Below, piece by piece: positions 55,747-60,325 of a stretch of 60,325 bases of DNA (positions are counted from its first letter, which is position 1; each line of letters begins with the position of its first letter). The DNA is from an uncultured Candidatus Saccharibacteria bacterium. Lineage in GTDB: Bacteria; Patescibacteriota; CPR2; UBA1875; CAIMLA01. Both the position numbers and the translations under genes were made by a program. The stretch is from the NCBI GenBank assembly GCA_964641375.1, contig CAZXMN010000003.1, positions 1 to 60,325 on the forward strand, read 5' to 3'. The notes under the pieces are model-generated. The model was not told the DNA's origin. It was given only the letters and a program-made list of their open reading frames with translations, and searched no databases.

Positions 55747-55843
55747 CTATTTTTTATTGGAAGTTATTCTAGGAGAATCTTTCTTTATATAAAGTGAAAG
55801 CCGCCTCCCAGCGGACAATCACTTATCAAACAAATGATATAAC

Positions 55844-55871
55844 AAAAAATACCTTATTGCAGGTATTTTTT
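55844..55871. terminator. Bidirectional terminator
   Basis: aaaaaatacct-tattgc-aggtatttttt between convergent genes. Confidence 0.75.
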
Positions 55872-56289
55872 AGACCTTTAATTCCATTTTTACTAGATCT
55901 GCTATCTTCTGGTGAACATTTTTGTACGCGTCCCAGACAGACTGACACCAGGTGAATATGGCAGCGTCTCTTTCTGGCCCCGGTTGAGCCAACAGTACAT
56001 CTCTAGCGCTTATGTCTCCACGATACTCGGGCAGAACTATTTTTGGCCAAGTTTTTCGCTTCATTGCAAGCTCCATGTGGGCTAGTTGAGTCTGTCTACC
56101 GGTATAACCTTTTTCTAGACATAGGTATAGCCCAACCAAAGCGAAGACTATCTTTATTGGCTTTGTATCTTCGTTGGCATTTTGAGCCGCATAGGCATCG
56201 ACAATGTTCTGGTGGATGAAGGAAGGGTTCGGGTGCGCTAGCGTGTAGTACGCCAGCTGATGATATGCTTGATCTTCTGATTCTTCCAT
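55870..56289 (-). CDS. DUF5946 family protein
   Basis: FIHQNIVDAYAAQ...FALVGLYL.LEKG...QLAH...WCQSVW; start moved to 56289 (MEESEDQ). Confidence 0.75.
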   Translation of the reverse strand: MEESEDQAYHQLAYYTLAHPNPSFIHQNIVDAYAAQNANEDTKPIKIVFALVGLYLCLEKGYTGRQTQLAHMELAMKRKTWPKIVLPEYRGDISARDVLLAQPGPERDAAIFTWCQSVWDAYKNVHQKIADLVKMELKV

Positions 56290-56524
56290 GACTCCCTTAC
56301 TTAGTTCGCCAGTTAATTTCGAAGGAAATGGAAAATTTGTTAGGAATCTTCCATTTGGAAAATCGAAGGAAGAAAAACTGGAATTTATTCTCAGCGATTT
56401 TTCCAAAGCCGAATCTATTTAACGTTAGTTCGATATCTATAACCATAATATTTCCAATCTGACTAGATTCTAGCACAAAGTAGGCATATCCCTAAGGGTA
56501 TATAATTATATATAGAACTAAAAT

Positions 56525-56923
56525 ATGGAGAAACAGATGGCAAAAGGCGAGACAGAAGCAAATGCATGTACGGAAATTGACAAATTGATTGCTCTTCATC
56601 CTGACTGGCGCGGTAAGATGCTTGCGAAGGTTCGCAAGATCATTCTGGAGGCTGATTCTGAGATTCTCGAGCAGTGGAAATGGATGGGTTCACCGGTATG
56701 GGAAAAGAGCGGGATTATTTGTGTCGGAAATATTTTCAAGAACAAGGTTCAAATTGTTTTTAGAGACGGTGCAGCGCTCGAAGACCCCGACAAAATCTTT
56801 AATGCTGGCTTTGGCGGTAAGCAATGGCGAACTATCGATATTTTCGAGGGCGACGAAATCAACGAAACAGCGCTCAAGAATCTAGTTCGTGAGGCAATTA
56901 TTTACAATCAAGCAAAAAAATAG
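56525..56923 (+). CDS. DUF1801 (YdhG-like) protein
   Basis: WRGKMLAKVRKII..AD..I.E.WKWMGSPVW...F..GA.L.DP..IFN...R.IDI. Confidence 0.85.
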   Translation: MEKQMAKGETEANACTEIDKLIALHPDWRGKMLAKVRKIILEADSEILEQWKWMGSPVWEKSGIICVGNIFKNKVQIVFRDGAALEDPDKIFNAGFGGKQWRTIDIFEGDEINETALKNLVREAIIYNQAKK

Positions 56924-56936
56924 GAAGAAGAATAAA

Positions 56937-57269
56937 ATGGCAGAATCTATTAAACTTTTAGTCTATCCGGTGAAGGATTACGAAAAAGCCAAGGTTTTTT
57001 ACACCAAGTTTCTCGGAATCGAGCCCTACGTGGATAGCGAATACTATGTGGGCTACAAAGCTGGTGACTTGGAGATTGGGTTAGATTCACAAGCACAAGT
57101 CGGCCCTATTGCATATGTTGATGTAGAAGATATCAAGGCAAGCATCCAAGAAATGCTCACAGCTGGTGCCGAGCTAGTGCAAGATGCACATGAAGTCGGC
57201 GGCGGCTTGCTAGTCGCTCAGGTCAAGGATGCTGACGGCAACGTTGTTGGGTTCAGACAACAGTCCTAG
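56937..57269 (+). CDS. VOC/glyoxalase family protein
   Basis: YPVKDYEKAKVFY...YVDVEDI...DVGGG-type HEVGGG...KDADGNVVG; start moved to 56937. Confidence 0.88.
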   Translation: MAESIKLLVYPVKDYEKAKVFYTKFLGIEPYVDSEYYVGYKAGDLEIGLDSQAQVGPIAYVDVEDIKASIQEMLTAGAELVQDAHEVGGGLLVAQVKDADGNVVGFRQQS

Positions 57270-57514
57270 AACTTATTTATATGTGTGATTATTTTCCCAA
57301 TTGTTTTCCATATCCGCATGGTAATTTCTTTGCCGTATTCTTTTTCTAGTTGCCTCATTATTTGTGGTGTCCTTTTAATCTCTGGGTTAATCACGCTGGA
57401 GATTACCGTCTGAACATTGCTAAATCCCAATTCTTCAAAGAATTGCGTAAGTTTATCTCCGTGCATGTTGGGATTTTCAGGACCAACGCCCCTGATAAAT
57501 GCGACGTATTTCAT
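57266..57514 (-). pseudogene. DUF1697 family gene with a probable large in-frame internal deletion
   Basis: N-terminus MKYVAFIRG...LGFSNVQTVISS joined directly to a C-terminus like ...LEKEYGKEITMRIWKTIGKI; only 82 aa, GNV motif absent. Confidence 0.65.
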
Positions 57515-57522
57515 AATTATGA

Positions 57523-57978
57523 TTAAACAATTTTATTAATTAGATTTTTTGCCCAAGTTTTAGCTCTCTCAAGGTCTTTTTCGTTAGGATGTCCTTTTGC
57601 AAAGCCTCCAAAGGGCTTTGAAATTGGAGGATAAGTGTCAAAACCAAGGCACTCGAAAAAATCGATTATTTCAAACCCGGCATCTGTGAAAGTTTTTCTA
57701 AAATTGTTATGGAATTTATTGTAAAAAGCGTCAGGTCCACCGCTTGTGGCGATGATAAAACACCTTTTCTCATTATTGGTAAATAGTCTTTCGAAACCTA
57801 CGTGTGGCTTCGCAAAATAAACTCCACTGGCAAAACCTATCACGTCATAGTCGGCGAGCATTTCAGTCTTGGCCTTTGCGAGTGGAACTATCTCACAGTT
57901 AAGGACCTCGGCAACAGCCTTGACTACTTTTTCAGTATTCATGTGGTGAAATGATTGATAAATAATTACAGTTTTCAT
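57523..57978 (-). CDS. Flavodoxin family protein
   Basis: IIYQSFHHMNTEKV, YDVIGFASGVY, IATSG, CLGFDT...GHPNEKDL. Confidence 0.88.
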   Translation of the reverse strand: MKTVIIYQSFHHMNTEKVVKAVAEVLNCEIVPLAKAKTEMLADYDVIGFASGVYFAKPHVGFERLFTNNEKRCFIIATSGGPDAFYNKFHNNFRKTFTDAGFEIIDFFECLGFDTYPPISKPFGGFAKGHPNEKDLERAKTWAKNLINKIV

Positions 57979-58132
57979 GAATACAGTTTACCACAAAGAG
58001 TGCTGTTCTTTAGTTTCGTTTCTAGTTTTTCTTTGTTTGATATCCCTTGGTTTAAGTTTTCACGTTTTTCTAAGATCCAATGCACATATATTATATATAA
58101 GTATAGGTGTAGTAATTTTTTGTGATTTTAAG

Positions 58133-58190
58133 TTCAAAAAGGGCTAAAAAATATAGCAATAGGCTGCTATATTTTTTAGCCCTTTTTGAA
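58133..58190. repeat. Perfect 26-bp inverted repeat with 6-nt loop
   Basis: ttcaaaaagggctaaaaaatatagca-ataggc-tgctatattttttagccctttttgaa. Confidence 0.95.
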
Positions 58191-58270
58191 TTCTAAATCC
58201 AGACTTTTTATCGACCTGTAGTTATTAACAATGAGACGTGACAAATGCATTTAAATTCCTTCCTAAACAA

Positions 58271-58296
58271 ACTAGCAAGCCGATCGGCTTGCTAGT
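58271..58296. repeat. Perfect 26-nt palindrome
   Basis: actagcaagccgatcggcttgctagt is its own reverse complement. Confidence 0.95.
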
Positions 58297-58464
58297 CTTT
58301 GTAAGTCGACCAGATTAACTGGCCTTCATTGAATTATTGGAACTGTTTAGTTCCATCATGCGTACTTTGGCGAAGCGGCGCGCGCCAAGGCCTTTTTAAG
58401 CACAGAACGAGACAAACGAGACACTAAATCCAAGATGTCATAAGCCCTCTTGTGGGTGCCTGTA

Positions 58465-58493
58465 TTGACTAAGTATTAGGAAAGTAATATAAT
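58465..58493 (+). promoter_or_regulatory. sigma70 promoter of the radical SAM cassette
   Basis: TTGACT-17 nt-TATAAT. Confidence 0.8.
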
Positions 58494-58519
58494 GCCGCCA
58501 AGCTAGGCCGCCAAGCTAG
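58494..58519 (+). repeat. 13-bp direct tandem duplication at the predicted transcription start
   Basis: gccgccaagctag twice. Confidence 0.9.
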
Positions 58520-58589
58520 TCCGCTCCCCACATCATGTGGGGGGTTCTGTATACACAAACTAGTTCGCACCTTGAAAGGGTGATTACCG

Positions 58590-59885
58590 ATGCTGTACCG
58601 TCAGCTAAGGGCTCCTATTAGTGCCCAGATTGAGCTAACAACGGAGTGCTCAAACAACTGTCCGCACTGCTACAACTATCAGCGGCAAGACGACGATCCC
58701 GATACCACAATGTCCGTTGAGCAACTGCGAACTACATTCGCAGCGCTCGGTCGGGCAGGCGTCTTCTCCACCATTATCACTGGTGGGGAACCTGGTCTAC
58801 GACCTTCTCTGGTTGTGGAAGGGATTCGCTTGTGCTCAGAACTGAACATTTCATGCTCCATCAACACTAATCTGACGACTCTGACTGAAGAGACGTTGGT
58901 TAAGATGGTGGAGGCGGGTAAGTTCACGGTTCTGACCTCAATCGCATCTTTCCAGGAGTCGGTCCATGACGCGATGATGGGAAGAAGCGGTGCTTTTCGC
59001 AGAACCGTGCGGGGAGTTGAACTTCTTAAGCAGTACGGGGTTCCGTTCTCGGCGAACATGGTTGTGGCTCAAGCAAACGCTGGTCAAGTGTATGAGACTG
59101 GACTGTTTGCACACTCCCTAGGTGCCAGGTCATTCTCAGCCACAAAGGCGTCACCGCCGCTTGGGTGCAACGACTACTCGAAGGTTCAGCCGACACGCGA
59201 TCAAGTCCGACAATCTCTCGATGATCTACTCCGACTCAACGAAGAGACGGGGATGCCGGTTGATATCCTAGAGTGCTACCCGCTCTGTTTCTTCGGAAAT
59301 GTCGAGAAGTACAAGAGGTTCACTCGGCATAAGTGCTCGGCAGCAATTTTCTCGAGCGCGATTGGGGCTGACGGTCTGGTACGGCCGTGCTCTCACTCGA
59401 ACCGTACCTACGGCAATGTCTTCACGGAAGATCTCGACGTAATCTTCTCTCGAATGCTAGAGTGGAGGAGTGGAGATCTGCTTCCGGAGCAGTGTCTCAA
59501 CTGTAACTACTTCAGCCAATGTTCTGGTGGTTGTCGTTGTGAAGCTGAGCATGCGGGAGACATCGCTGGGATGGATCCATATGCACTTGGAGAGTCGAGT
59601 GTGATTCCCCAAGCAAGCGAGGTATCTGTCGAGTTCGCAGTAGCTGATGAGACTCGCTTCGGTATTGACGCTTCCGTACGCTTCCGCAAGGAAGGATTCG
59701 GCTATGTCGTCAAGGGTCGGGCTTCCTTCGCCATAGTCGGTCCGGAGGCAGGCGACCTGCTCATGAAGCTGCAGATGTCCGGTATGACTCTAGCCGAAGC
59801 AAGTCGCTATTCTGGCTTTGACCCCGATCAAGTTCTCGCGGTGTTGAAGGGCCTGGTTTCAAAGAGGATAGTGAGTTTTGTATAG
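58590..59885 (+). CDS. Radical SAM/SPASM enzyme with probable C-terminal PqqD/RRE-like domain (putative RiPP maturase)
   Basis: CSNNCPHC (Cx3Cx2C), TGGEP, SPASM C-x12-G-x4-C and Cx2Cx5Cx3C, about 80-aa beta/helix C-terminal extension. Confidence 0.92.
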   Translation: MLYRQLRAPISAQIELTTECSNNCPHCYNYQRQDDDPDTTMSVEQLRTTFAALGRAGVFSTIITGGEPGLRPSLVVEGIRLCSELNISCSINTNLTTLTEETLVKMVEAGKFTVLTSIASFQESVHDAMMGRSGAFRRTVRGVELLKQYGVPFSANMVVAQANAGQVYETGLFAHSLGARSFSATKASPPLGCNDYSKVQPTRDQVRQSLDDLLRLNEETGMPVDILECYPLCFFGNVEKYKRFTRHKCSAAIFSSAIGADGLVRPCSHSNRTYGNVFTEDLDVIFSRMLEWRSGDLLPEQCLNCNYFSQCSGGCRCEAEHAGDIAGMDPYALGESSVIPQASEVSVEFAVADETRFGIDASVRFRKEGFGYVVKGRASFAIVGPEAGDLLMKLQMSGMTLAEASRYSGFDPDQVLAVLKGLVSKRIVSFV

Positions 59886-59953
59886 CTCACTGAAGGCCGC
59901 ACCTCGGTAATGTGTCTACCCCGCTTGTCTGGGAACAGGAAGGAGGAAACGGG

Positions 59954-60067
59954 ATGGAGCTTCTCGGCATCGTGAATGGCGCGTCCGTCGATTCGATGGC
60001 GTCCAGTTGCGAGTGTGACAGCCCCAACTGCGACAGCGGTTGCGACTCCGACAACGACAACGACTAG
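59954..60067 (+). CDS. Putative RiPP precursor peptide, 37 aa, Cys/Asp-rich (not in ORF track)
   Basis: AGGAGG (59941-59946) 7 nt before the ATG; MELLGIVNGASVDSMASSCECDSPNCDSGCDSDNDND*; directly after the radical SAM gene and before a strong terminator. Confidence 0.85.
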   Translation: MELLGIVNGASVDSMASSCECDSPNCDSGCDSDNDND

Positions 60068-60101
60068 AAACCGGCGACACGAAGGACGTCGGTAGCACTG
60101 G

Positions 60102-60143
60102 GACCCGGTGCCCCTTTGGGGGTACCGGGTCTTTTCGTTTTTT
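60102..60143 (+). terminator. Strong intrinsic terminator closing the radical SAM-precursor operon
   Basis: 13-bp stem gacccggtgcccc-tttg-ggggtaccgggtc followed by ttttcgtttttt. Confidence 0.9.
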
Positions 60144-60325
60144 ACATAGCGGAACTATGAGATGTGGTGAGTGTGGCTCATTTATTATTGGTGAACGGAA
60201 GTTCAAGACTCTCAGAAAGTCCGGCAAAAAGACTATGTATATTTACTATCTTTGCTCAAAGTATTCACATCGGGAATGTAAGCAGCTTCCTATAAACGAG
60301 CAAGCTTTAATACCTCAACTTGTTA
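60139..60325 (+). pseudogene. 5'-truncated large serine recombinase fragment (zinc beta-ribbon), runs off the window
   Basis: FLHSGTMRCGECGSFIIGERKFKTLRKSGKKTMYIYYLCSKYSHRECKQLPINEQALIPQLV matches the CxxCG...YYxC...C...I.E pattern; no catalytic domain upstream in this frame. Confidence 0.75.

Follow-up and report, generated by a model that had tools for sequence, protein, structure and literature searches.

The frame that runs off the end of the 60,325-nt stretch of DNA analysed here (the window) is very probably what remains of a large serine recombinase (LSR, integrase) gene after loss of the first 275 codons, lying in a grounded integrative island at a tRNA-Asp gene. The window is the complete contig C3 of a 655 kb genome of an uncultured Candidatus Saccharibacteria bacterium (18 contigs, 96% complete), and the point at which the frame is cut, 60325, is the end of that contig and no biological boundary. 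As a class the feature is ordinary, a grounded integrative island whose integrase has been beheaded. The lineage that holds it is little studied, and the relatives recovered by homology are named Patescibacteria.

The last frame of the window is open from the stop codon at 60037-60039 to the contig end. Over 60157-60324 it matches the Pfam recombinase zinc ribbon (PF13408, Zn_ribbon_recom) with 30.6 bits (E 4.6e-7) against a cut-off of 25.3 bits; the longer frame 60040-60324 scores 33.1 bits, and the range over all searches is 30.6-33.7 bits. A six-frame search of the genome returned a single match above the cut-off, at the same locus. All four zinc-binding cysteines are kept (CGEC, YYLC and REC). 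An intact LSR of 421 aa (L007:673-1938) has a sole tblastn match in the genome, C3:60133-60324, which covers its residues 276-338 with 67% identity (E 1e-21), and across intact Patescibacteria LSRs the identity in the zinc-ribbon region is 67-75%. Homology to LSRs begins upstream of the ATG at 60157 at both the protein and the nucleotide level: the window reads F-R-F-L-H-S-G-T-M-R-C-G-E-C-G where intact proteins read E/N-F-D-Y/F-S-G-T/V-M-R-C-G-E-C-G, and nucleotide identity sets in at ~60139-60145. Intact proteins of the family have the methionine of 60157 as an internal residue (TMRCGECG or VMRCGECG). The resolvase domain with its catalytic serine nucleophile (PF00239), present in the intact relatives, is absent upstream of 60133 and elsewhere in the genome, and the recombinase domain (PF07508) has no match in the whole genome; tblastn and Pfam searches of the other genome contigs found neither the missing N-terminal nor the C-terminal parts of the LSR. 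The original prediction, made from the window alone, of a recombinase zinc ribbon with no catalytic or recombinase domain upstream is borne out on both counts.

The remnant begins in a terminator. Its stem (60100-60133, 15 pairs, fold energy -40.6 kcal/mol, z -5.1) is followed by the T-rich tail TTCGTTTTTT, which extends to 60143. A GC-rich hairpin followed by a T-run identifies it as Rho-independent, and it belongs to the gene for a small Cys/Asp-rich peptide that closes a radical-SAM cassette. The LSR breakpoint falls between 60133 and 60145, within the T-tract, which is where the frame had been predicted to start. The coordinates of the island and its borders are collected in Table 1.

Table 1. 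Features of the tRNA-Asp island, in the window (plain coordinates) and on the adjoining contigs L024 and C6
Feature	Position	Strand	Details
Repeat A, diverged second copy of the tRNA-Asp 3' flank; distal island border	58257..58373	-	79% identity over 122 aligned columns to L024:1983-2096
Hairpin/dyad GGAAC-N6-GTTCC	58337..58356		12-14 nt from the tRNA 3' end position
24-nt block identical in both repeat copies, GTTCCATCATGCGTACTTTGGCGA	58350..58373		24/24 to the C6 end and L024
GC-rich cassette	58374..60138	+	1765 bp, 53.8% GC
Promoter	58465-58493		predicted
Radical-SAM/SPASM gene	58590-59885	+	Pfam
Cys/Asp-rich peptide gene	59954-60067	+	
Terminator	60100-60143		
5'-truncated LSR gene, zinc-ribbon domain	60139..60325	+	residues ~276-338 of the 421-aa protein; runs off the contig
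PD-T4-2_B	L024:356-895		split into ORFs of 114 and 59 aa in one frame by an in-frame TAG at L024:551-553
PD-T4-2_A	L024:903-1976		intact; GmrSD_N/DUF262, E 3e-121 (PADLOC)
tRNA-Asp(GTC)	L024:2091-2167 = C6:32693-32769	opposite	

A scan of metagenome contigs with a protein pattern gave four loci, L022 and L024 among them, which carry the locus beyond the window. L022 (4555 bp) was assembled from a different sample and corresponds to window positions 55805-60325; it continues for 34 nt past the contig end, and its tail overlaps the start of L024 over 123 of 123 nt. L024 (2199 bp, unbinned) overlaps the window end directly over 89 nt with one mismatch, and its positions 2073-2199 are identical over 127 nt (100%) to the end of C6, another contig of this genome. 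These overlaps put the contigs in the order C3, L024, C6 reversed, with the 2-kb middle of L024 missing from the bin. The chain is built from contigs of different samples, which counts against it; the window end overlaps no other contig of the genome. A fragment in the last 190 bases of a contig, beside a sharp change in GC content, could in principle be the product of a chimeric assembly at the contig end, but such an artefact can practically be dismissed: the other-sample contig L022 runs across the two borders of the cassette and differs from the window at 2 of 4521 nt (99.956% identity), its overlap with L024 is perfect, and the sole shared repeat is the 24-nt block, too short to mislead a large-k assembler. 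The independent assembly of L022 and the overlap with L024 therefore make the junction real. Contigs of several of the family's metagenome-assembled genomes also break at or within tRNA-Asp (the ends of G000:C6, of G002:C12 and C24, and of G009:C8), a pattern consistent with strain-variable islands at this gene.

Downstream of the window, where inspection for the rest of the gene and for an attachment or tRNA site had been proposed, the LSR frame continues uninterrupted on L024:2-343 to a stop at L024:341-343. The continuation is 74.5% identical to residues 310-419 of the intact LSR of contig L023 and, by homology, would comprise the coiled coil and the C-terminal tail region. The remnant as a whole covers codons ~276-421, from 60139 to ~60579 in window-equivalent coordinates. 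A complete zinc-ribbon gene unrelated to recombinases and starting at ATG 60157, the outcome that the original prediction had named as fatal to it, is contradicted by this LSR C-terminal region. After the LSR stop and on the opposite strand follows a pair of defence genes resembling the PD-T4-2 system of PADLOC. The likeness lies in the match of the A gene and in a B gene that matches in two pieces; the difference is that B is broken here by an in-frame TAG, so the system may be dead, like the integrase. The island then adjoins the tRNA-Asp gene directly. Followed in the direction of the window, the locus consists of older accessory genes, repeat A, cassette, LSR remnant, PD-T4-2_B (TAG), PD-T4-2_A, repeat A', tRNA-Asp, C6.

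The second border of the island lies within the window. Repeat A' (L024:1983-2096) abuts the 3' end of tRNA-Asp directly, and repeat A is its diverged counterpart. The tRNA portion of these border repeats amounts to only 6 nt: repeat A ends in TGGCGA, the reverse complement of the last 6 nt of tRNA-Asp, beyond which no more of the tRNA is kept, and after TGGCGA the sequence continues into the tRNA body on L024 and into GC-rich DNA in the window. No further copies of repeat A exist in the genome. Left of the 24-nt block that is identical in both copies, repeat identity drops to ~75%, and the block is a candidate recombination core. The left edge of the cassette (58373/58374) coincides exactly with the end of repeat A. 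Because the copy of the tRNA-Asp flank ends precisely at the cassette edge, a ~3.9-kb island comprising the cassette, the LSR remnant and PD-T4-2 can be delimited, judging from these sequences, between direct repeats of the tRNA-Asp flank. The radical-SAM and peptide (RiPP) genes are hence tied to a decayed integrative element as predicted, with the remnant abutting the cassette terminator between the direct repeats. The other end of that element had been placed beyond the window, and this proved half right: the rest of the gene, PD-T4-2 and tRNA-Asp are on L024, but the distal end is inside the window, at 58373/58374.

The island would once have integrated at the tRNA-Asp 3' flank by means of this LSR. 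LSR attachment sites are usually shorter than the A/A' repeat (117 nt, 79% identical). No close relative among the 10 family genomes searched showed an empty site. The flavodoxin-like neighbour gene is absent from all 10, and the neighbour gene on C6 occurs among family genomes only in G001, with no adjoining tRNA-Asp. Around the intact LSR islands no flanking direct repeats were seen within ~6 kb.

A GGAAC/GTTCC hairpin with a loop of 3-8 nt recurs in the flank of tRNA-Asp in five islands that have a close LSR: the present genome has it in both repeat copies, and it is also found in L023, G004, G002 and G016, the last with the compensatory pair AGAAC/GTTCT. It was unseen in four tRNA-Asp flanks that have no close LSR, and the tRNA-Asp flank of G018 has a different hairpin. 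The hairpin may be part of the attachment site. Several further structures surround the left border. The left two-thirds of window positions 58310-58398 are the diverged copy of the tRNA-Asp 3' flank, hairpin included, and TTGGCG (58366-58371) could base-pair with CGCCAA (58382-58387) on the other side of the junction. Further left, positions 58124-58199 form an imperfect palindrome of 76 nt (20-bp stem) that looks like a terminator on either strand and has an 80% identical relative at G000:C7:12881-12970. Rfam returned only sub-threshold hairpin matches for this palindrome, and only sub-threshold hairpin noise for 57900-60325 as a whole.

The cassette differs in composition from everything around it. 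Sequence left of the repeat has a GC content of 40%; the value rises to 53.8% in 58374-60138 and falls to 33.8% in the LSR remnant, with 37.9% for the rest of L024 and the island, and the GC3 of the radical-SAM gene is 56.9%. Homologous pairs of a radical-SAM/SPASM gene and a Cys/Asp-rich peptide gene, with 61-62% amino acid identity, occur in two other Patescibacteria (L045:5001-6540 and L015:352-1930). Both are likewise GC-rich islands (~44-53% versus flanks of ~30-39%; in round figures ~50% versus ~32%), and each has its own terminator hairpin and different neighbours, with no adjoining LSR or tRNA. The presence of the same GC-rich module in these unrelated contexts makes the cassette a portable module of foreign composition, and its link to an LSR island is seen only in this genome. 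With protein identities of just 61-62%, the shared GC-richness suggests either that the cassettes were imported more than once or that the genes themselves maintain their composition. All three share a leader hairpin followed by (G)TTCGCACCTTGAAAGG just 5' of the start codon (window 58556-58589, L045:4973-5000 and L015:345-369), possibly a conserved translation or regulatory signal. A separate 30-nt motif, TTTTAAGCACAGAAYGAGACAAACGAGACA, lies just inside the left end of the cassette (window 58394-58423) and recurs with 97% identity in an intergenic region at G007:C45:1431-1460; a search of 400 genomes of the phylum with the cassette 5' leader gave this stretch of G007, a family relative, as its sole match.

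How the cassette came to lie against a beheaded integrase can be explained in two ways. In the simplest history, an LSR island would first have integrated at the tRNA-Asp 3' flank. An older island may already have ended at this flank, to judge by the genes on its left, which are accessory and absent from relatives. The island would have carried the cassette, or acquired it, at its distal end. A deletion reaching from the terminator T-tract to LSR codon 275 would then have taken away the promoter and the catalytic half of the gene; whether by deletion or by replacement, such an event would account for the loss of the first 275 codons with the catalytic and recombinase domains. The order of these events is what we infer from the layout. 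The rival is that the cassette is itself mobile and was inserted later into an intact island, taking the place of the whole stretch between the tRNA-flank core and LSR codon 275. Its foreign composition relative to the remnant, its own promoter and terminators, and its appearance as a compact GC-rich module in unrelated contexts of two other Patescibacteria would all fit a late arrival. Yet an insertion requires two breakpoints, one of them falling by chance exactly at the edge of the 24-nt block, no transposase, repeats or target duplication flank the cassette, and in the other two genomes it adjoins neither an LSR nor a tRNA. Later insertion is accordingly a serious though less likely alternative, and one deletion in a cassette-bearing island explains the layout at least as well. 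Of the two possibilities named in the original prediction, that the cassette replaced or that it interrupted the LSR gene, truncation or replacement stands, while interruption does not, the 5' part being wholly absent. The island has no working integrase, its gene being truncated; with the catalytic and recombinase domains gone, it has no enzyme of its own for excision or movement and is grounded under either history.

Is anything still made from the remnant? It is most likely a silent pseudogene, given the strong terminator directly upstream and the lack of a promoter or Shine-Dalgarno sequence; a search between the terminator and ATG 60157 found no promoter-like site and no Shine-Dalgarno sequence, and expression is thus presumably absent. 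Neither stop codons nor frameshifts interrupt the remaining 148 codons, in which every conserved residue is retained. The branch leading to the remnant has a dN of 0.119 compared with 0.069 for its sister (~1.7x), dS being saturated in every pair. The clean frame and the modest dN suggest a recent truncation; the frame, lacking visible decay, may also be compatible with some retained use. A stronger version of such use would have the 140-aa ORF from ATG 60157 work as a stand-alone protein, for example as a DNA-binding decoy at attachment sites or as a coiled-coil partner of incoming integrases that blocks integration or excision at tRNA-Asp. All 140 codons are open, the four cysteines and the conserved C-terminal motifs are kept, and a library of 1.8 billion proteins holds many short Met-initiated relatives of this region alone. 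We nevertheless regard this version as highly improbable. LSR homology extends 5' of the ATG (FxF..SGT), so that Met 60157, a conserved internal residue, is no new start, and the terminator ends just 24 nt upstream of an ATG that lacks promoter and ribosome-binding signals. The lengths of library homologues were considered as evidence of a stand-alone family and rejected as biased. Matches in the assembled genomes of relatives lie mostly in open frames of >400 aa, so that clustering and the fragmentary state of metagenome contigs best account for the excess of short matches. The same library contains other beheaded relatives: in P0006 a DnaJ J-domain-like N-terminus precedes the coiled coil and tail together with the latter half of the zinc ribbon, and P0004 has an unrelated N-terminus and degraded cysteine motifs.

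The search for intact homologues and their cargo, also proposed at the outset, was productive. Full-length homologues of 419-423 aa with resolvase, recombinase and zinc-ribbon domains are encoded on the metagenome contig L023 and in G016, G002, G004 and G018, and in all five tRNA-Asp lies 0.1-2.0 kb downstream on the opposite strand. More distant members show the same arrangement beside tRNA-Asn, tRNA-Met or tRNA-Trp. Among 33 relatives on viral contigs (41-51% identity), 14 downstream tRNAs were found on 13 contigs, all of them on the opposite strand and often at the extreme contig end; the lone same-strand tRNA lies beyond an opposite-strand one. The cargo in L023 includes Eco57I-type and MmeI-type methylases, a T5orf172/ResIII protein and an OLD-like ATPase, and that in G016 a type III restriction-modification system. 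The tRNA-Asp island of G004 carries a diversity-generating retroelement (DGR) with bAvd, reverse transcriptase and an Lcl_C-domain target protein (L029, G004:C9, 2247-5148). The nearest solved structure to the intact relatives is SPbeta SprA/YokA (9dxh; E 3.5e-11, zinc-ribbon region included), and the TP901-1 integrase also matches.

The locus can be set against known systems in several respects. The intact relatives have the resolvase, recombinase and zinc-ribbon order of large serine recombinases, and the window fragment is that zinc ribbon; unlike those enzymes, the window copy has neither catalytic nor recombinase domain and would not recombine DNA. The family is further set apart by its short length (~421 aa) and its position beside tRNA 3' ends. 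In mycobacterial prophages, tRNA-overlapping attB sites are used by tyrosine integrases, and serine integrases integrate elsewhere (PMC10654092). With the choice of tRNA sites usually tied to tyrosine integrases, the steady tRNA adjacency of this LSR clade is mildly unusual. The tycheposons of Prochlorococcus build tRNA islands by successive integrations, with partial tRNAs and fragmented integrases, LSRs being in the minority (bioRxiv 10.1101/2020.12.28.424599). Shared with them are a streamlined genome, an island at a tRNA gene, a partial tRNA at the borders, integrase fragments as remnants of older elements, and defence or niche cargo. However, the tRNA piece kept here measures only 6 nt, and most of the repeat consists of the flank downstream of that tRNA; the present element sits in a Patescibacterium, and its island showed no replication or packaging genes. 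In grounded (defective, immobilised) prophages and islands, reviewed in PMC6379469, an element that loses its integrase is fixed in the chromosome together with its cargo. Integrase loss would immobilise the element here too, but what is left of it is a ~3.9-kb remnant with no phage genes.

For the family as a whole we offer, tentatively and with doubts that outweigh our confidence, the following picture. The ~421-aa LSR clade would be the integrase of small cargo islands and proviruses of Patescibacteria that target tRNA 3' flanks, tRNA-Asp in the case of the closest members, possibly via the GGAAC/GTTCC hairpin and a core of ~24 nt. Such islands would move defence systems, DGRs and the radical-SAM cassette, and the window would hold a grounded member, the remnant of which might still interfere with related integrases. 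At the level of annotation, the frame should be corrected from a zinc-ribbon gene to a 5'-truncated integrase pseudogene, and C3 and C6 are joined via an unbinned contig of 2.2 kb. A compact LSR family with a predictable, tRNA-linked candidate site would be of interest to those who collect serine integrases, but only if the attachment sites are confirmed experimentally. Finally, a radical-SAM cassette inside a decayed mobile island at tRNA-Asp would provide a concrete route by which such cassettes spread among the Patescibacteria, a group whose means of gene exchange are poorly known.
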